64,000 bases of DNA from Alphaproteobacteria bacterium (lineage in GTDB: Bacteria > Pseudomonadota > Alphaproteobacteria > CALKHQ01), in assembly GCA_965227515.1 (NCBI GenBank), contig CBDDFZ010000002.1:512001-576000 (forward strand). The letters run 5' to 3'. Both the position numbers and the translations under genes were made by a program. Below the pieces are notes generated by a model. The model saw only the letters and a program-made list of their open reading frames with translations, made no database searches and was not told the origin of the DNA. Positions 16,373 to 26,429 of this stretch are shown one piece after another (within the stretch, counting starts at the first letter, position 1; each line of letters begins with the position of its first letter).

Positions 16373-17158
16373 ATGGGCCAATTGCGCAGCACCAATGCCG
16401 ACGACTACCAGCACCTGCCGCAGCCCATCGGCGCGATGGCGAAGCGGTTCGCGGACGGCTTCGTCATTCCGCTGCACAGCCATCCGCGCGACCAGCTTCT
16501 ATATGCCATCAGCGGCGTGATGCGGCTGCGCACGGAGGGCGCGGCCTGGGTGGTACCGCCGGACGGCGCCGCCTACATCCCAGCCGGCACGCCGCACGCC
16601 GTGCACATCCACGGCCGCGTCGACATGCGCACGCTCTACATCGACACGGCGCGGACCAAGGCCGAGCACGGTGCCGCGCGGCCGGACCTCCGGGTGGTCG
16701 CCGTTTCCGGCCTGTTGCGCGAACTGATCATGGCGCTGTGCGAGGAGCCGGTGGACTATCCCTCCGGCGGCCGCGCCGAGCTGCTCGCCAGCCTGATCGC
16801 GCACGAGCTTCGGGCTGCCCCGGCGCTCGCCCTGCACGCGCCGCTACCAACGGACCCACGGTTGCAGCGGGTCTGTGCGGCTTTGCTGGCCGATCCGGCC
16901 AACCGCTATAGCCTGGAGGCATGGGCGACGGACGCAGGAGCCTCGGCGCGCACCCTGGCCCGGCTGTTCCAGAGCGAACTTGGCATGAGCTTCGGCGCTT
17001 GGCGCCAGCGGGTGCGGTTCCAGGGCGCGCTGGAGGCACTGTCCGCTGGAGCCTCCATCGCCCAGGTGGCACACGCGCACGGCTATCAGAGCCCGAGCGC
17101 CTTCACGTCCGCTTTCGGCAAGGCGATGGGCTTTGCCCCATCGCAGGCGCGCCGCTAA
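16373..17158 (+). CDS. AraC family transcriptional regulator (cupin + HTH)
   Basis: HSHPRDQLLYA cupin; ASARTLARLF...GYQSPSAFTSAF AraC HTH; divergent from the MFS gene. Confidence 0.93.
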   Translation: MGQLRSTNADDYQHLPQPIGAMAKRFADGFVIPLHSHPRDQLLYAISGVMRLRTEGAAWVVPPDGAAYIPAGTPHAVHIHGRVDMRTLYIDTARTKAEHGAARPDLRVVAVSGLLRELIMALCEEPVDYPSGGRAELLASLIAHELRAAPALALHAPLPTDPRLQRVCAALLADPANRYSLEAWATDAGASARTLARLFQSELGMSFGAWRQRVRFQGALEALSAGASIAQVAHAHGYQSPSAFTSAFGKAMGFAPSQARR

Positions 17159-18486
17159 GCCCCGATCCGGTCGAAGAAGTCGGTGATCACGTTGCGGCCC
17201 TCGGTCGGCGGGCAGCCGCACATGACAGCGATGGCAAGCCCCACGGTCGAGGTGACCGGCGTGTGGATGGCGCTGCCCATCCCATGCCCGGCCGAGAGGT
17301 TCATCACCAGGGTCGGGCAGCAGAACAGCGCCCGCCGCACCGTGGTCTGCCAGTCCTGGGGCAGCATGTTCTCGCGCTTCAGGGCGGCGATCATCGGCCG
17401 CCAGTAGCGCGCGATCTTGTCGGCCAGGAAGGCGGCGCGCAGCGGCGAGAGCTTCCAGTCGTGGCCGACCTCCAGCGTATCGCCGACGCGCTGCACGCTG
17501 GCCCGCAACTGCCCCACCGTCTCGCCCGGCTGATAGAGCCACAGCGGGTGGGCGAAGATATTGTGGAAGGTCGCCTTCACCTCGGCCAGCAGGGCGGGCA
17601 CGTGGCGGCCGGCGAACGCCGGGTCGAACCAGCTCAGGCTGGTCTTGCCGTCGGCGTCGGTCTGGTACCAGACATTGGCGTTATGGGCGTCGCCATGGGC
17701 GACCACGGCGGGGTAGCGGTCGATGGCGTCGGGGTGCAGGCGCTTCAGCGAGTCCGCGAACAGGTCGTCCAGCGTCATCGGATAGTCGCGGCCGTTGATC
17801 CGCCACTTGAGCTGGCGCAACTCGGCGGCCGGCAAGGTCACGCCTGGCAGCTCCATGATCCGGTCGTCGCCATAAAACCGGCGCACGCGCCCGCCCACCC
17901 GGTCGCGCCCACGGTCGTCGGTCAGCCGCCAGGTGAAGAGCTGCAGCAATGGCTCGGCCGCGTAGTCCGCCTTGTCGGCCCAGTGCAGCGTCTCCAGCGC
18001 GCGCTTGAGCACGATGTCGTCCAGGTCGGCCTGGGCGGTGATAAGCGGGCGCAGCTTGTCGAGATCGAACACGTCGTCGTGCGCCTTGCACACGTCGGCG
18101 AAGCGCGGCGCCTCGCGCACGTCATAGAGCAGGATCTGGCGCCCGACCTCCTTGCTGACATAGCGCGCGGTATCGACCGGATAGCCGGCCTCGGCCAGCA
18201 GCTCGGCGCGGTAGTATTCGCCCACCGTGTCCTCCTCGCCCTCCTCCTGGTGGAACTTGAAGAACATCCGGCTGCCGTCTTTCATCGACACGAACCCGTT
18301 GACCGAGTTCAGCGAATAGCCGTCGCGGCGAATGTCGACCCCAGCCACATCAAGCCGGAAGGTGGAGCCGATCAGGTCGGCCAGCAGCGCCTCGGCCGCC
18401 GGCTGGTCGCCGTCGGCCAGCCGCGCCCGCACTGCGGCCAACGGGCCGATCGCGGCCTCCGGGCCAACCGCCGCGCTGTCAGTCAT
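17155..18486 (-). CDS. Phosphotransferase (APH/choline-kinase-like) fold hypothetical protein
   Basis: Start ATG 18486 overlaps the hisD-like stop; FFKFH, Brenner-type motif HGDAHNANVW, and WFDPAFAG. Confidence 0.7.
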   Translation of the reverse strand: MTDSAAVGPEAAIGPLAAVRARLADGDQPAAEALLADLIGSTFRLDVAGVDIRRDGYSLNSVNGFVSMKDGSRMFFKFHQEEGEEDTVGEYYRAELLAEAGYPVDTARYVSKEVGRQILLYDVREAPRFADVCKAHDDVFDLDKLRPLITAQADLDDIVLKRALETLHWADKADYAAEPLLQLFTWRLTDDRGRDRVGGRVRRFYGDDRIMELPGVTLPAAELRQLKWRINGRDYPMTLDDLFADSLKRLHPDAIDRYPAVVAHGDAHNANVWYQTDADGKTSLSWFDPAFAGRHVPALLAEVKATFHNIFAHPLWLYQPGETVGQLRASVQRVGDTLEVGHDWKLSPLRAAFLADKIARYWRPMIAALKRENMLPQDWQTTVRRALFCCPTLVMNLSAGHGMGSAIHTPVTSTVGLAIAVMCGCPPTEGRNVITDFFDRIGA

Positions 18487-20127: not shown

Positions 20128-20457
20128 ATGAGCTCCCAAACGACGACGCACTCCGCCAGGTTCCGGGTTGGCCAGGTGATTCAGCACCGCCTGTTCGAGT
20201 ATCGCGGCGTGGTGTTCGACGTCGATCCGGTGTTCCAGGGCAGCGACGAGTGGTACGAGCGGATGGCGCAGACGCGCCCGCCCAGGAACCAGCCCTGGTA
20301 CCACGTGCTGCCGGACGGCGAGACCCACACCACCTATGTGGCGGAGCGCAATCTGACCGAGTGCGAGACGCCGCACCCGATCAGCCACCCCGAGCTCGAC
20401 CGGCACTTCACCCGCTTCGCCCGTGGGGCCTATGTGCTGCGGCGCCGGGCGAACTAA
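20128..20457 (+). CDS. hspQ: Heat shock protein HspQ (YccV-like)
   Basis: ARFRVGQVIQHRLFEYRGVVFDVDP, QPWYHVL, TTYVAERNL. Confidence 0.92.
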   Translation: MSSQTTTHSARFRVGQVIQHRLFEYRGVVFDVDPVFQGSDEWYERMAQTRPPRNQPWYHVLPDGETHTTYVAERNLTECETPHPISHPELDRHFTRFARGAYVLRRRAN

Positions 20458-20482
20458 GCACCAATAGACCACACACTCAATC

Positions 20483-20593
20483 GTCATGCCCGCACTTGTT
20501 GCGGGCATCCACGTCTTTGTTCGAGAGCAAAAAGTCGTGGATACCCGTGTCTCGGCCCCCGCATAAAAAATCGGGGGCCGGCCCGGGCATGAC
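20483..20593. repeat. CGTC-type palindromic repeat (GTCATGCCCGCACTTGTTGCGGGCATCCAC ... GTGGAT...CATGAC)
   Basis: Identical left arm also at 29248 and 62804. Confidence 0.85.
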
Positions 20594-20692
20594 GTGGTGG
20601 TCGTGTGGGTCGCATGCAGCTTGCGAAGCCTCCTTGCTGACTTCCCCCGATTGACTTCCGGGACGGCGGGGACCAGACTCCCGTTCACAACA

Positions 20693-20779
20693 TGGCTGGG
20701 GTGTCCGTGGCCGATGGCGGCGACGGGCTGAGATCACACCCATCGAACCTGATCTGGATCATGCCAGCGCAGGGAGCCC
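20693..20779 (+). ncRNA. TPP (THI-box) riboswitch
   Basis: GGCTGGGGTG...GGGCTGAGATCACACCC ATCGAACCTGATCTGGATCATGCCAGCGCAGGGAGCC carries the conserved CTGAGA, ACCTGAT and GCGnAGGGA elements; P1 GGCT/AGCC. Confidence 0.92.
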
Positions 20780-20810
20780 GACCGGACCGCGACAGAACGC
20801 ACCTCCGGAC

Positions 20811-20864
20811 CCTCCCGAAAAGCCGGCATGCCACCACCGAACGGTTCGGCGCCTGTTTGGGAGG
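20811..20864 (+). promoter_or_regulatory. Riboswitch expression platform: anti-SD/SD sequestering hairpin
   Basis: CCTCCCGAA (20811-20819) can pair with TTTGGGAGG (20856-20864), the RBS of the ATG at 20871. Confidence 0.65.
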
Positions 20865-20870
20865 TTGAAC

Positions 20871-22022
20871 ATGCTTATCCGGACGACACGTATGTGCGGG
20901 ATCGCCGCGATGGCCGCATTCGCCCTTGCCACATCCGCCATTGGCGCCGGCCAGGCCGCGGCCGAGGACATCTCGCTGCCGATCCTGGTGCCGATCACCG
21001 GCTTCCTGGCGCTGGAGGGGACCAGCCAGCGCAATGGCGCGCTTTTGGCGCTGGAGAATCTGCCCGCGTCCCTGACCGTCGAGGCGGAGGTCACCGACAC
21101 CGGCACGTCGCCGGAGGGCGCGGTCACCGCGTTCGAGCGCGCGCTCAGCGGTGGCAGCCCGCTCGCCATGGTCGCGCCGATGCTGGGCACCCAGATGCTG
21201 GCCATCCTGCCGCTGGCCGCCGACTACGAGGTGCCGCTGATCACCATCTCCGGCACCGCCGCGATCACAGAGCAGGGCAACCCCTGGATCTTTCGCTTCT
21301 TTCCCGGCGACGCGGTGGTGAAGGTGGCGCACGCCCGCTATGCGGTGGAGGAGGTCGGCATGGCGGCGCCCGCGATCATCTACCAGACCACCGCCTATGG
21401 GCAGAGCGGCCACGCCCATCTGGTCGAGAACCTGACCGTGCTTGGCGCCGCCCCGGTGCTGGAAGAAGGCATCGCCACCGATGTGCGCGAGATGGCGCCC
21501 GTGCTGGCCCGCGCGCAGGAGGCCGGCGCCGACGGCCTGATCCTCCACCTGCACGCCGGGTCGACCGCGCTGGTCATCCGCCAGGCCCGCGCCATGGGTT
21601 GGGACGTGCCGATTGTCGCCGGCTCCGCCATGCACCAGCCGTCGACCGCCGCGCTGCTGGAGCCGGCCGAGCTTGCCGGCGTGTGCGCCGAGACCGGGTC
21701 GTCGCCGATCTCCGGCGGCTCGCCCGAGATCGAGGCTTGGGCCGCGCGCTACCAGGAGCGCTTCGACGGGCCGCCCGACGCCTTCGCGCTGGCCCAGTAT
21801 GATGCAGTGCGCATCGTGCTCCAGGCGGCGGCCGATGGCGTGACCTCGCCCGAGGCGTTGCGCGACTGGCTGGGCCATTTCAGCACGCCGGGGCTCGCCA
21901 TGACCTACAAGTCGGACGGCACCGGCAACATGGCCCATGACGCGGTGATCATCTGCTACGGCGGCGAGGACCGGGTGCCGGAGATCGTGAAGCGCTACGA
22001 GAACGTCGACGGCGTGCTGTAG
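20871..22022 (+). CDS. HAAT/Liv-family ABC transporter substrate-binding protein
   Basis: Signal peptide; PITGFLALEG, NPWIFRF, YGQSG and YDAV motifs of LivJ-type binding proteins. Confidence 0.9.
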   Translation: MLIRTTRMCGIAAMAAFALATSAIGAGQAAAEDISLPILVPITGFLALEGTSQRNGALLALENLPASLTVEAEVTDTGTSPEGAVTAFERALSGGSPLAMVAPMLGTQMLAILPLAADYEVPLITISGTAAITEQGNPWIFRFFPGDAVVKVAHARYAVEEVGMAAPAIIYQTTAYGQSGHAHLVENLTVLGAAPVLEEGIATDVREMAPVLARAQEAGADGLILHLHAGSTALVIRQARAMGWDVPIVAGSAMHQPSTAALLEPAELAGVCAETGSSPISGGSPEIEAWAARYQERFDGPPDAFALAQYDAVRIVLQAAADGVTSPEALRDWLGHFSTPGLAMTYKSDGTGNMAHDAVIICYGGEDRVPEIVKRYENVDGVL

Positions 22023-22041
22023 CGCGCGGCAAGCTGCCGCC

Positions 22042-22917
22042 ATGCTCACCGTCCAGCTCATCGCCAACTGCCTGGCGCTGGGGGCCGCCTACACGCTGGC
22101 CGCCCTCGGCTTCGTGCTGATCCTGAACGCGGTCAGCGCGGTTAACTTCGCCCATGGCGACCTGGTGGTCTCCGGCGGGCTGCTGGCGGCGGCGACCGCC
22201 AGCGCGGTGCCGCTGCCCGGCATCGCATTGCTGCCTGCGATCATGCTGGCGATGGCCTTCGTTGGCCTGGTGGTCGCCGTTGTCGCCTACTTGCCGCTGA
22301 GGCGGCAGCCGCCGGTCAGCGTGTTCGTCAGCACCATCGCGGTCGGCATCATCCTGCAGAACGGGCTGCTCGGCGCGTTCGGGCCGGAGCCGCAGAGCGT
22401 GCCGGCGATGCTGCCGGCCATGCTGCCGGCCACTGGCAGCGTGGCCGGTGTCTCGGTGCAGCAGGTCGCTGTCATTGCCGCCGCGGCGGTGCTGGTGGCC
22501 GGGCTGTGGGCGCTGCTGGAGCGCACCCAGATCGGCCGCCGGCTGCGCGCCAGTGCCCAGGACCCAGACATGGCCCGCGCGCTCGGCATCCCGGTCCGCC
22601 GCATGGTGCTGCTGAGCTTCGCCTTGGCGGCGGCGCTGGCGGGTGCCGCCGGTGTGCTGCTGGGCCACAATTTCTTCATGGAGCCGCACCAGGGCACCGA
22701 CTTCATGCTGAAGGCCTATATCGCCGTCACCATCGGCGGCTGGGGGCGGCTGAGCGGGGCGGTGCTCGGCGCCATGATCATCGCCGCGTTCGAGGTGCTG
22801 GTGGCGGCCTGGATCTCCTACACCGCCGGGCAGGTGGCACTCTATGCCGCGCTGCTGCTGGTGCTGATGGTGCGGCCGCACGGCCTGATGGGCGAAGTCG
22901 CCTACCGCCGGGCATGA
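22042..22917 (+). CDS. HAAT ABC transporter permease (LivH-like)
   Basis: ALGFVLI...VNFAHGD, TQIGRRLRASAQDPDMARALGI, IGGWG. Confidence 0.92.
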   Translation: MLTVQLIANCLALGAAYTLAALGFVLILNAVSAVNFAHGDLVVSGGLLAAATASAVPLPGIALLPAIMLAMAFVGLVVAVVAYLPLRRQPPVSVFVSTIAVGIILQNGLLGAFGPEPQSVPAMLPAMLPATGSVAGVSVQQVAVIAAAAVLVAGLWALLERTQIGRRLRASAQDPDMARALGIPVRRMVLLSFALAAALAGAAGVLLGHNFFMEPHQGTDFMLKAYIAVTIGGWGRLSGAVLGAMIIAAFEVLVAAWISYTAGQVALYAALLLVLMVRPHGLMGEVAYRRA

Positions 22918-24638
22918 GCGCGCGCGCCGGCACGGCCGTCGACATTGGCGCGGGCATCGTTGCCGCCCTGCTGATCGCCGCGGCGGCCCTGTTCGGCGAT
23001 CCCTACACCCAGCGCGTGCTGACCATCGCCGGCGTCTACGCCATCAACGTCATCGGCTACCAGCTTGTGTTCGGCCACCTGGGCGCGCTGTCGCTGGCAC
23101 AGGGCGCCTTCTTCGGCCTCGGCGCCTACACCACCAGCCTGCTGGCGCTGAACGCCGGCCTGCCGTTCCCGTTGACGCTCGCCGCATCCGTGGCGGTGCC
23201 GACGCTGCTGGCGGCGGTGATCGCGCTGCCGGTACTGCGCCTGGAGTCGCACTATTTCGCGCTCGCCACCCTCGGCATCGCGCAAGTGATCCTGGTCGTC
23301 GCAGTCAACTGGACGGCGGTGACGGGCGGCGCCAATGGGCTGCCCAACGTGCCCGGCATCGCGTTCGGCGAGGTGCCGCTGGGGCGTGGCTGGCCGACCA
23401 TGCTGGCGGTGTGGACGGGTGTCGTGGTGGTCGCGGTGGCCGCGCTGGCCTGGCTGCGGCCGCGCCGCCGGCTGGCGCTGGGGCTCGCGCGGCAACAGCC
23501 GATGGCCGCCGCCGCTGTCGGCATCGACATCGCGCGCCTGCGCTTCGCCGCCTTCCTGATGAGCGCGGCCTGCGGCGGGGTGGCGGGCGCGCTCTACGTC
23601 CATACCACGCGGGTGATCTCGCCCGACGCGCTCGGCTTCTCGGTGATGGTGACCACGCTCGCCATGACGGTGATCGGTGGCCGCCTGCGCATCGCCGGTG
23701 CCCTGATCGGCGCGCTGTTGTTGGCCCACGTGCCGGAGTGGCTGCGCTTCCTGGGCCAGTATTATCTGATCGCCTATGGCGTGGCTTTGCTTGCCTTCGT
23801 GGTGCTGGCGCCGGACGGGATCGCCGGCTGGCTCGCGCGCCTGGTGCCTGTCGGCAAGCCATCCCATGTCGGAGAGCCGCCCAGTGCCCCACACCCTGTG
23901 CCGGCGGCGGCGTCGCTGGCGGGCCCGGTGCTGGCGGCGGCGCAGGTCTGCAAGCACTATGGCGGCGTGTGGGCGGTCGATGGCGTCGATCTTGAGGTCG
24001 GCGCCGGCGAGGTCCACGGCATCATCGGCGCCAACGGATCGGGCAAGACGACGCTGCTGAACTGCCTCGGCGGCACGGTCCGCGCCGATGGCGGCACGAT
24101 CCAATTCTGCGGTGAGGACATCACCGCCTGGTCCGCCGACCGCCGCGCCCGCGACGGCATCGCGCGCGCATTCCAGACCTCGATGTTGCTGGAGGGCGAG
24201 ACCGTGCGCGACAACGTCGCGGCTGGGTGGCTGGGCGAGGGCGGCCTCGATGGCGCGCGCGCCGAGGCCGATGCGGTACTCGCCCGCTGCGGCTTGGCCG
24301 GTGCGGGGGACAGCGCGGCGGGTGAGCTGCCGATGGCCCTGCGCCGCCGGGTCGAGATCGCCCGCGCGCTGGTCGGCCGGCCCCGGCTGGTGCTGCTGGA
24401 CGAGCCCGCCGCCGGCCTGACCGAGGGCGAGCAGGAGATCCTGGCCGACATGATCGCCGGGGCCGCGACGAACGGTGTCGCCTGGATCGTCGTCGACCAC
24501 CATCTGCCGTTCCTCCGCCGGGTCGCCGGCCGGTTGCACTGTATGGCCGAGGGTCATGTGATCGCCAGTGGCGCACCCGATGCGGTGCTGGACGACCCGG
24601 CGGTGCGGCGCGGTTATTTCGGCGAGGCGTCCCCATGA
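22914..24638 (+). CDS. HAAT ABC transporter permease/ATPase fusion (LivM-LivG-like)
   Basis: ATGA overlap start; LSLAQGAFFGLGAY, YFALATL; then IIGANGSGKTT and LLDEPAAGL. Confidence 0.9.
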   Translation: MSARAGTAVDIGAGIVAALLIAAAALFGDPYTQRVLTIAGVYAINVIGYQLVFGHLGALSLAQGAFFGLGAYTTSLLALNAGLPFPLTLAASVAVPTLLAAVIALPVLRLESHYFALATLGIAQVILVVAVNWTAVTGGANGLPNVPGIAFGEVPLGRGWPTMLAVWTGVVVVAVAALAWLRPRRRLALGLARQQPMAAAAVGIDIARLRFAAFLMSAACGGVAGALYVHTTRVISPDALGFSVMVTTLAMTVIGGRLRIAGALIGALLLAHVPEWLRFLGQYYLIAYGVALLAFVVLAPDGIAGWLARLVPVGKPSHVGEPPSAPHPVPAAASLAGPVLAAAQVCKHYGGVWAVDGVDLEVGAGEVHGIIGANGSGKTTLLNCLGGTVRADGGTIQFCGEDITAWSADRRARDGIARAFQTSMLLEGETVRDNVAAGWLGEGGLDGARAEADAVLARCGLAGAGDSAAGELPMALRRRVEIARALVGRPRLVLLDEPAAGLTEGEQEILADMIAGAATNGVAWIVVDHHLPFLRRVAGRLHCMAEGHVIASGAPDAVLDDPAVRRGYFGEASP

Positions 24639-25273
24639 GCCCGATCGGCGCCGTGCTGGACATTCGCGGGCTGGAGGTGCGCCGTGGCGGCGCGCCGGTG
24701 CTGGACGGGTTCTCGCTCGATGTGGAGGGGGGAGCGCTGGTCGCGGTGGTTGGCCCGAACGGCGCCGGCAAGTCGACGCTGCTGCAGGCGGCCATGGGCC
24801 TGCTGCCCGTGTCCGGCGGGTTCGTTGCGCTGGCTGGCCGCGATATCACGAGACTGCCGCCCGAGGCACGGGCGCGGGCCGGCATCGGCTATGTGCCGGA
24901 GGGCAGGCGGGTCTTTCCCGGCATGACCGTGCGCGACAATTTCATGGTCGCGGCCGATTGCGCGGCGGCCGCGCGGGCGGAGCGCCTGGATCGGGTGCTG
25001 GCCCTGTTCGGCGGGCTGCGCGCCAAGCTGGAGGACCGGGCGTGGACGCTCTCCGGTGGCCAGCAGCAGATGGTCGCCATCGGTCGCGCGCTGATGACGG
25101 CACCGCGCCTGCTCCTGCTCGACGAGCCGACCCTGGGGCTTGCGCCCGCGCTGGCCGGCGAGGTGATGGCCCAACTGCGCCGCATCGCCGACGAGGGCAC
25201 CGCCGTGCTGGTCGCCGAGCAGAACGTCGCCGCCGTGAAGCCCTGGGCGGATCGGCTGGTTGAATTGAATTAG
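24635..25273 (+). CDS. HAAT ABC transporter ATPase (LivF-like), short C-terminus
   Basis: GPNGAGKST, YVPEGRRVF, LSGGQQQMVAIGRAL, DEPTLGLAP, EQN. Confidence 0.9.
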   Translation: MSPIGAVLDIRGLEVRRGGAPVLDGFSLDVEGGALVAVVGPNGAGKSTLLQAAMGLLPVSGGFVALAGRDITRLPPEARARAGIGYVPEGRRVFPGMTVRDNFMVAADCAAAARAERLDRVLALFGGLRAKLEDRAWTLSGGQQQMVAIGRALMTAPRLLLLDEPTLGLAPALAGEVMAQLRRIADEGTAVLVAEQNVAAVKPWADRLVELN

Positions 25274-25292
25274 TTTGTTTCTCGCTTACGCG

Positions 25293-25379
25293 AAGTCGGC
25301 ACCAGCCCGCACCCCCACCCGGCCGCCCAACGATAGTATCCTGCCTGGGAGGCCGGGAGGGGGTGTGGGCCGGCGCAGA
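25293..25379. repeat. Palindromic REP-like element, CCCTC/GAGGG family, copy 3
   Basis: CCCGCACCCCCACCCGGCCGCCCA...TAGTATCCTG...GGGAGGCCGGGAGGGGGTGTGGG. Confidence 0.8.
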
Positions 25380-25562
25380 TCGAACAAGAAGCGCTTTAGC
25401 TGCATGATTGCCAGCGCCCGCGCTGCCCTGATATCGGTGTCGCGGCGGTTCGCCGTGGCTGGCTTGCGAGTCGGCCGGCAAGCCGTCGCTGCCCGGACCC
25501 GGCGATGCCCTATCTGTTGACGTTCGTTCTGCTCTGTCTGCTTGGACTGCTGGTGACCTGCG

Positions 25563-26429
25563 TTGCGTAAGACCCTGCTCGTCCTCACCGCTGTCATGGC
25601 CGCGCTGGTCGCGGGCTGCGAAGTGGTGCCGCGCGTGATGGAGCCTGGCGCCGCACCGCCGGGCCTGGCCCTGCTGCCGCAGGATCGCGCCGGCATAGTG
25701 GTCGATCCGGTGGGCGGCGTCTCCGAGCCCTTTGCCACCGATATGGCGCGCGAGGTGGTCGAGGGCCTGATCGATGCCAACGTCCCCGCCAGCCTGGGGC
25801 GCGGCGCCGCGCAGAGCTATCGCCTGAAGGGCTCGGCCAGCATGGTCGACCGTGGCAACGGCATGATGCAGCTCTATGTCGACTGGGCGCTGCGCGACCC
25901 GGCCGGCGCACTGGTCGGGCAGTTCGAGGACAACACCCTGGCACCCAGGGAGAGCCCGGAGACCGCAGGCTATCTGGCCGACCTGGCGCGCGATGCCGCA
26001 CCGCGGCTGGCAGCCCTGATCCAGGACGAGGTGCCGGTGTCGATGGTTCCGGTGGCGGCGCCCGCTGGCGGTGTGACGGTGGCTGTCGGGCCGATCACCG
26101 GCGCGCCCGGCACCGGGTCCGACGATCTTATGCGGGCGGTGCGCGGCAACCTGCCCTTGTTCGGCATGCGCATCGTCGACGACGCGGCGGTCGCCAGCCA
26201 CCGGTTGACCGGCGAGATTGCGGTCGGCCCCGTAAGCAATGGCGCGCAAAGCGTGTCGCTAACCTGGCGGCTGTTGGATGCGGCCGGCGAGGAACTCGGC
26301 CGGCTCGATCAGGATAACCAGGTGGCGGCCGGCAGCCTGGACGGCAGCTGGGCCGGCGTCGCCTCGGTCATCGCCGAAGGCGTGGCCGGCGGCGTGGCGC
26401 AGATCCTGGCCCAGACCGGCGCGTTGTGA
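25563..26429 (+). CDS. Hypothetical lipoprotein with two similar alpha/beta domains
   Basis: Lipobox LVAGC; duplicated motifs VDWALRDPAGALVG / LTWRLLDAAGEELG. Confidence 0.8.
   Translation: MRKTLLVLTAVMAALVAGCEVVPRVMEPGAAPPGLALLPQDRAGIVVDPVGGVSEPFATDMAREVVEGLIDANVPASLGRGAAQSYRLKGSASMVDRGNGMMQLYVDWALRDPAGALVGQFEDNTLAPRESPETAGYLADLARDAAPRLAALIQDEVPVSMVPVAAPAGGVTVAVGPITGAPGTGSDDLMRAVRGNLPLFGMRIVDDAAVASHRLTGEIAVGPVSNGAQSVSLTWRLLDAAGEELGRLDQDNQVAAGSLDGSWAGVASVIAEGVAGGVAQILAQTGAL

Follow-up and report, generated by a model that had tools for sequence, protein, structure and literature searches.

What does a transporter with the family features of a branched-chain amino acid importer carry when its genes stand behind a riboswitch for thiamine pyrophosphate (TPP)? 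The question is raised by a stretch of 64,000 nt, here called the window, from the genome of an Alphaproteobacteria bacterium (assembly GCA_965227515.1, contig CBDDFZ010000002.1, positions 512,001 to 576,000), in which a TPP aptamer precedes four genes for an ATP-binding cassette (ABC) transporter of the Liv type. The riboswitch and the gene content of carrier genomes make it highly probable that this operon encodes a TPP-repressed importer of some thiamine-related compound. For the cargo, gene content points with moderate confidence to the thiazole moiety of thiamine, as hydroxyethylthiazole (HET), carboxy-HET (cHET) or a close derivative. The initial annotation of this DNA had proposed thiamine, a thiazole or pyrimidine precursor, or a degradation product as the cargo of this nominally branched-chain amino acid transporter, and all of the computed evidence agrees, with the substrate read from gene content.

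The riboswitch and its operon

The Rfam TPP model (RF00059) matches positions 20687-20792 of the + strand over model positions 1-105, with 63.8 bits against a gathering threshold of 54.3 (E = 3.5e-10), and is the sole Rfam family at gathering threshold in the whole window. The full THI-box aptamer (THI element) that had been placed at 20693-20779 is the core of this match, so that the earlier reading is upheld by a covariance model. From the aptamer end to the start codon of the first gene (20871) there are 79 nt. Across 74 aptamers from orthologous loci (72 distinct sequences), in an alignment that was itself fitted to the covariance model, 93.5% of cells are paired and eight pairs have changed on both sides; the observed score was reached by none of 500 shuffles, and slid controls were 36-63% paired. 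The leader RNA is a genuine and conserved TPP riboswitch, for which ligand binding and repression are predicted from sequence.

The four genes that follow on the + strand have Pfam families that agree throughout with the four-gene operon of the hydrophobic amino acid uptake transporter (HAAT) type described in the initial annotation. The first (20871..22022) encodes a periplasmic substrate-binding protein of 383 aa, of the type I periplasmic binding protein class (Peripla_BP_6; PF13458, 139.1 bits), whose N-terminus resembles a signal peptide by eye. It is followed by a LivH/UrtB-like BPD_transp_2 permease of 291 aa (22042..22917; PF02653, 133 bits) and by a 574-aa fusion of a LivM-like permease with a LivG/UrtD-like ATPase (22914..24638; PF02653 at residues 34-294, PF00005 at 356-499, PF12399 at 549-572), the ATG of which overlaps the stop codon of the preceding permease gene. 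The last gene (24635..25273) encodes a LivF/UrtE-like ATPase (ABC_tran) of 212 aa (PF00005, 112.2 bits). A Peripla_BP_6 protein, two BPD_transp_2 domains and two ABC ATPase domains are thus present in a single operon, which is the composition of HAAT (Liv/Urt) systems. For the LivG-type C-terminal motif (PF12399) the fusion stays just below the cut-off of 25.5, at 23.9 bits (E = 3.1e-5).

None of the four components reaches an NCBIfam equivalog cut-off for Liv or Urt. For the binding protein the sole NCBIfam match is the LivJ-type model PRK15404 (45.8 bits, cut-off 477), with no UrtA match. The first permease scores 129.6 bits with UrtB (cut-off 250.3) and 101.9 with LivH (cut-off 379), the fusion ATPase 153.7 with UrtD (cut-off 304.1) and 146.7 with LivG (cut-off 362), and the last ATPase 190.6 with UrtE (cut-off 285.8) and 145.2 with LivF (cut-off 441).

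Riboswitch and operon occur together well beyond the window. In a first sample of 60 relatives, mostly one per family, an orthologue was found in five genomes besides the window's own (59-70% identity), and a TPP aptamer lies just upstream in all five of these loci, which come from other families (60.6-68.8 bits). Among 185,579 species genomes scanned, 125 relatives were found, and the 80 best were used (57-68% identity); they include Thalassobaculum, Nisaea, Stella, Reyranellaceae, Azospirillum and many alphaproteobacterial metagenome-assembled genomes (MAGs). With a covariance model built from six aptamers, an aptamer was found on the same strand, just before the binding-protein gene, in 74 of the 80 loci; three of the misses (L014, L033, L069) are contigs that start at the gene, with no upstream DNA. 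Because the same aptamer-operon pair recurs in 5/5 and 74/80 loci, chance pairing is excluded, and the presence of TPP switches before orthologous binding-protein genes, which the initial annotation had singled out as telling, is established at these loci.

Gene order is conserved as well. A crude clustering of open reading frames (ORFs), limited by contig ends, over 81 sources (the 80 loci and the window) gave the genes in the same order: the binding-protein gene was recovered from 68 sources, that of the first permease from 60, the permease-ATPase fusion, at a median length of 576 aa, from 62, and the last ATPase gene from 43. One MAG (G105) holds two copies of the Liv-type operon (L044 and L062), each with its own TPP aptamer, and a third aptamer elsewhere. 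When the class was sampled evenly (401 genomes), 29 genomes had an orthologue, and these belong to 19 of the roughly 208 families in the sample; every match had E <= 3.3e-95, and none fell between 1e-60 and 1e-95. At E <= 1e-60 the databases hold at least 1858 proteins of the transporter family, and public database names are generic, e.g. "ABC transporter substrate-binding protein".

The AlphaFold2 model of the binding protein (58 orthologues) has a type I periplasmic binding fold, with a predicted local distance difference test score (pLDDT) of 92.6 and a predicted template modelling score (pTM) of 0.89. Its top Foldseek matches, all at most 21% identical, comprise the Leu-binding protein 3td9 of Thermotoga (E = 2e-23, 21% identity), Atu2422, keto-acid and aromatic-acid binders of Anabaena and Rhodopseudomonas, and binders of urea and pyroglutamate; in the sequence comparison, the top PDB entry scores 64 bits. 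Such neighbours could suggest a true amino-acid importer, de-repressed at TPP shortage to offset stalled TPP-dependent synthesis of branched-chain amino acids, an explanation with which membership in Peripla_BP_6 and BPD_transp_2, the sub-threshold match to the LivG-type C-terminal motif and the presence of Leu-binding proteins among the top structural neighbours agree. It is very improbable, however, given the distance of the binding protein from the LivJ-type cut-off, the replacement of the residues aligned with the presumed alpha-amino acid contacts and a tight link of the system to thiamine-precursor auxotrophy, described below. In HMMER alignments, which compare residues at alignment level and not from pocket coordinates, the Asp of the G-D-G turn in 3td9 and 4gnr is opposite Ser252 of the binding protein, and a Tyr of 3td9 is opposite His228; both Ser252 and His228 are invariant across the 58 orthologues. 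The LivJ residues at these positions presumably hold the alpha-amino acid group and, if so, amino acids are not bound by the present protein as they are by Liv proteins. Known TPP regulons, moreover, hold genes of thiamine synthesis and transport, as PMC3766115 also states.

Thiamine genes of the carriers and the candidate cargo

The genome of the window (G000; two contigs, 99.67% complete) contains exactly two TPP riboswitches, that of the Liv-type operon and one before an operon of ABC_tran, BPD_transp_1 and NMT1-THI5 genes (thiZXY). It encodes ThiE (C1:818785-819330; TIGR00693, 171.8 bits, cut-off 145.1), ThiD (C2:72031-72768), TenA (C1:1262882-1263493) and ThiL (C1:3856775-3857740). ThiC, ThiM, TPK and Thi4 were not found in it, and its only ThiG candidate, a lone 24-bit match, is a nitronate monooxygenase.

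The same pattern is seen among other carriers, surveyed in the genomes of 50 of the 80 loci, mainly those on long contigs and with the three riboswitch-less loci included. ThiE is present in 49 of the 50, ThiG in 4, ThiC in 7 and ThiM in 5; TPK was found in none of the 50, and Thi4 in none of 51 (the 50 carriers and G000). In 38 of the 50, among them the single-chromosome assemblies G070, G078, G092 and G095, ThiE occurs without ThiG, ThiC, ThiM, Thi4 or TPK. Carrier genomes are thus mostly thiamine-precursor auxotrophs. Among the sampled relatives, 22 of 61 genomes have ThiG; it is present in 15 of 19 transporter-less genomes of at least 3 Mb, versus 1 of the 6 genomes with the transporter.

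One TPP aptamer was found in 5 of the 50 carrier genomes, two in 34, three in 7 and four in 4. In the 19 carriers checked (20 genomes with G000), the non-Liv aptamer precedes thiZXY or thiXY, and the TPP regulon of a typical carrier is just two importers, one of which is the known pyrimidine system (thiZXY). At L097, L109 and L117-L120 the riboswitch-controlled genes are thiX-thiY, with no ATPase gene in the fetched stretch; elsewhere the order is thiZ-thiX-thiY. At L104 (G075:C180) a third TPP aptamer precedes a gene for a ThiB-like binding protein (SBP_bac_6/8/1/11), followed by a gene for a transporter of the major facilitator superfamily (MFS). Larger regulons occur in the Thalassobaculum-like genomes G081, G084, G085 and G076, with riboswitch-controlled thiM (together with thiE in G081), thiXY and the Liv-type operon, and in G088, with thiC, thiM, thiXY and the Liv-type operon, no ThiG, and the Liv aptamer apparently at the end of another contig. 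No transporter gene is present in the thiM operons read (G081, G084, G088). In G096 the TPP regulon consists of thiC and the Liv-type operon only, again with no ThiG.

The argument for thiazole proceeds from ThiE, which needs thiazole phosphate and which nearly all genomes with no thiazole synthase found retain, so that a thiazole supply must exist. Carriers that by this logic must import thiazole have no other importer candidate in the TPP regulon, which leaves the Liv-type system, by elimination, as the best candidate. A complete binding-protein-dependent HAAT (Liv/Urt) ABC importer would then have been recruited to thiamine metabolism. It would bring in the thiazole moiety and ThiZXY of the same genome the pyrimidine moiety, after which ThiD, ThiE and ThiL would assemble TPP from the two halves; in genomes without ThiM a further, presumed step would have to yield thiazole phosphate.

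The main rival to a thiazole cargo is thiamine itself or thiamine monophosphate (TMP). The importer would take up intact thiamine, TMP or TPP in the manner of ThiBPQ, and ThiL would turn imported TMP into TPP. Such a system has no need of ThiM or ThiG, both of which are absent from most carriers, and ThiL is present in G000. In that genome ThiB (TIGR01254) reaches at best 63.9 bits against a cut-off of 93.4, at a site outside the Liv-type operon, so no recognised thiamine importer was found there. Furthermore, among ThiG-less, ThiE-bearing relatives ThiM is commoner in those without the transporter (4/9) than in those with it (0/4). Free thiamine, however, would have no known activation, as TPK is found in none of the 50 carriers nor in G000, and G000 has no ThiK match above cut-off. 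Import of thiamine or TMP would also leave unexplained the retention of ThiE, the riboswitch-controlled thiZXY, ThiD and TenA, as well as the riboswitch-controlled ThiC without ThiG in G096 and G088, and the carrier G075 has its riboswitch-controlled ThiB-like binding protein in addition. On balance this alternative appears the less probable of the two.

Another thiamine-related compound would be a less probable cargo still. Pyrimidine vitamers such as hydroxymethylpyrimidine (HMP), aminomethylpyrimidine (AmMP) or formylaminomethylpyrimidine (FAMP), or an amide or carboxyl degradation product, would suit the higher scores of UrtB, UrtD and UrtE over LivH, LivG and LivF (the urea/amide branch), the presence of TenA, and the aromatic acids, keto acids, urea and pyroglutamate bound by the PDB relatives. 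Yet thiZXY, under its own riboswitch, already serves the pyrimidine branch in the 20 checked genomes, and a second pyrimidine importer would leave the lack of thiazole unsolved; such a cargo is considered unlikely.

Several observations weigh against a TPP-repressed thiazole importer. G000 and 45 of the 50 carriers are without ThiM, the HET kinase, and imported HET or cHET would therefore have no known route to thiazole phosphate in most carriers; the distribution of ThiM among relatives (4/9 vs 0/4) could mean that the cargo bypasses ThiM, as thiamine phosphate would. The 50 carrier genomes, many of them MAGs, come with no completeness figures, and kinship among genomes inflates all of these counts. 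No conserved thi gene or kinase lies beside the operon in the 81 sources. At the other three of the six missed loci, L073, L079 and L087 (Stella vacuolata), relaxing the threshold to E <= 1 still gave no TPP match; the host genomes of L073 and L087 have both ThiC and ThiG, and L079 belongs to a ThiC-bearing MAG. When eight more distant orthologues (49-57% identity) were checked, an aptamer was found in three and none at E <= 1 in the other five, so that the pairing holds in a core clade and fades outside it. Lastly, the fold energy of the leader, a GC-rich RNA, is indistinguishable from that of shuffled sequences (z = -1.26, with 15 of 200 at least as stable), and its hairpin on its own thus proves nothing.

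The five aptamer-less distant loci (L124-L127 and L129, in G418, G296, G444, G136 and G116) are 49-56% identical, with about 700-800 nt of upstream DNA covered. These orthologues may have other regulation or another substrate.

With regard to the ThiM gap, either another kinase exists or the cargo bypasses ThiM. Candidates for such a kinase were sought in G000. A ThiK-like protein of 298 aa of the choline-kinase/APH family (C1:3486365-3487258; L133:566-1459) was set aside at 66.8 bits against a ThiK cut-off of 299; it scores 138.9 bits with GntI (cut-off 357) and its gene immediately precedes a long DAO-family frame. A role in choline metabolism is more likely for it, and as the missing hydroxyethyl kinase it is possible but unconvincing. 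No kinase is encoded near ThiE, which is flanked by genes for an aldolase, an epimerase and EF-P, and the other Phos_pyr_kin matches of the genome were rejected as PdxY and two ribokinases. ThiW (PF09512) gave no match in G000, though its control likewise matched in no genome.

More tentatively, a large group of Alphaproteobacteria may build vitamin B1 from two imported halves, with the Liv-type system as a hitherto unrecognised thiazole-vitamer importer of Proteobacteria in a salvage pathway independent of ThiM. The group would conceivably comprise relatives of Thalassobaculum, Nisaea, Reyranella and Azospirillum. Such salvage might possibly depend on a new thiazole kinase or on a cargo that is already phosphorylated (e.g. 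a phosphorylated or adenylated carboxythiazole).

The leader and the flanking genes

Upstream of the aptamer lies a candidate sigma-70-like promoter (20651..20679, + strand), with TTGACT at 20651 and, after a 17 nt spacer, CAGACT at 20674. The letters are present as the initial annotation had them, but with matches to consensus of 5/6 and 3/6, and with no site returned by a consensus promoter scan of 20300-25800, the promoter is only a weak candidate. Two GC-rich hairpins are visible by eye at 20486-20508 and 20554-20579, between the stop codon of a YccV-like gene (20457) and the candidate promoter; both are absent from the output of the terminator scan.

Between aptamer and first gene, the expression platform (20793..20870, + strand) contains CU-rich segments complementary to the Shine-Dalgarno (SD) sequence at 20803-20807 and 20811-20818, and the SD itself, GGGAGG at 20859-20864 (GGAGG at 20860-20864), ahead of the binding-protein start at 20871. 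In the minimum free energy fold 20811-20818 is paired with 20857-20864 and the SD is covered. The anti-SD hairpin over the ribosome binding site drawn in the initial annotation is therefore found as a predicted fold that buries the SD, but its energy, as given above, does not distinguish it from shuffles. Eighteen alignable orthologous leaders share a GGAG in the 3' part of the aptamer, a CUCC about 30 nt further on and a GGAG before the start codon, and the CUCC segment is able to pair with either the aptamer GGAG or the SD GGAG. RNAalifold on these 18 leaders gives a single helix of four pairs, between the aptamer GGAG and CUCC, with no covariation. No terminator-like site was found in the leader by the terminator scan. 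In another set of orthologues the coding region follows directly after the aptamer (by eye, no formal count).

This layout is that of a translational OFF switch such as the one in E. coli thiM. The TPP-bound aptamer would free the CU-rich anti-SD segment, which could then pair with the SD; plentiful TPP would in this way shut off translation of the operon, a direction of regulation suggested by the arrangement.

In the window, the upstream neighbours of the operon are genes for an MFS transporter, an AraC-type regulator, histidinol dehydrogenase and the YccV-like protein, and the downstream neighbour encodes galactarate dehydratase, all unrelated to thiamine. The initial annotation had looked to thiM, thiD or tenA near orthologous operons as a sign of function; that sign is absent, and what adjoins the operon are unrelated housekeeping genes. 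Recurrent neighbours across loci are YccV-like, phosphoribosyltransferase, SBP_bac_5, aminotransferase, epimerase and thioesterase genes. Two further ORFs of the window have no Pfam or NCBIfam match: 25563-26429 (+ strand, 288 aa), 290 nt past the operon, with a strong coding bias (GC content at third codon positions, GC3, of 0.87) and not conserved beside the operon in other loci, and 17155-18486 (- strand, 443 aa, GC3 0.93), between the AraC-type regulator gene and hisD.

Relation to known systems

Outside Additional file 5 of PMC3766115 and Rodionov 2002, which the search did not cover, no literature description of a TPP-controlled Liv/HAAT transporter was found in full-text searches. That additional file, from a study based on RegPrecise, lists 19 thiamin transporter orthologues and may bear on novelty. 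Table 1 of PMC10881298, a survey of B1 from 2024, gives the B1 transporters as thiB, thiT, thiY, thiV, cytX, ykoF, thiPerm and omr1; this list has no thiazole importer and no Liv-type system, and thiazole auxotrophs are called rare in the survey.

Surveys of how vitamin B1 is cycled work from a set list of transporters, and here a further transporter family is tied to TPP sensing. Most genomes with the Liv-type family have neither ThiC nor ThiG. Confirmation of the substrate would correct thousands of "branched-chain amino acid" annotations, supply models of B1 vitamer exchange with an uptake step that they now lack, and open the missing thiazole kinase step to study. Cultured carriers exist (Thalassobaculum fulvum, Azospirillum brasilense and Skermanella pratensis), so that the system is directly testable.

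Four known systems and one riboswitch invite comparison. ThiW is the predicted thiazole transporter of Firmicutes; the cargo class proposed for it is the same as that proposed here, and it is a small membrane protein, not an ABC transporter. The TPP riboswitch of E. coli thiM exerts translational control by sequestration of the SD. The present leader is like it in placing an anti-SD segment and an SD after the aptamer and in having no terminator, and unlike it in the genes regulated and in that some orthologues, by eye, start coding directly after the aptamer.

The branched-chain amino acid importers LivJHMGF and BraCDEFG and the urea importer UrtABCDE belong to the HAAT family (TC 3.A.1.4). 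With these the present system shares its component families, its fold and its gene order of binding protein, permease, permease, ATPase, ATPase; it differs from Liv and Urt in scoring below all equivalog cut-offs, in the fusion of LivM to LivG and in its control by a TPP riboswitch, and its binding protein is at most 21% identical to any solved relative.

ThiXYZ resembles the Liv-type system in its TPP riboswitch, in the precursor salvage proposed here for the latter and in co-occurrence in the same genomes. Its binding protein is NMT1/THI5-like and the families differ throughout, which makes it a partner system and not a homologue; no NMT1/THI5-like binding protein is present in the Liv-type operon, and ThiY of G000 sits behind the other riboswitch. 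ThiBPQ is the importer of thiamine, TMP and TPP in E. coli and Salmonella, an ABC system under a TPP riboswitch. Like ThiBPQ, the present system is a riboswitch-controlled, binding-protein-dependent ABC importer, probably for thiamine supply; unlike it, with ThiB of another binding-protein family and ThiP of the BPD_transp_1 type, it consists of Peripla_BP_6, BPD_transp_2 and two ATPase domains. Its novelty would be that a known class of function, TPP-controlled ABC import of a vitamin or precursor as in ThiBPQ and ThiXYZ, is built from another ABC family, HAAT.

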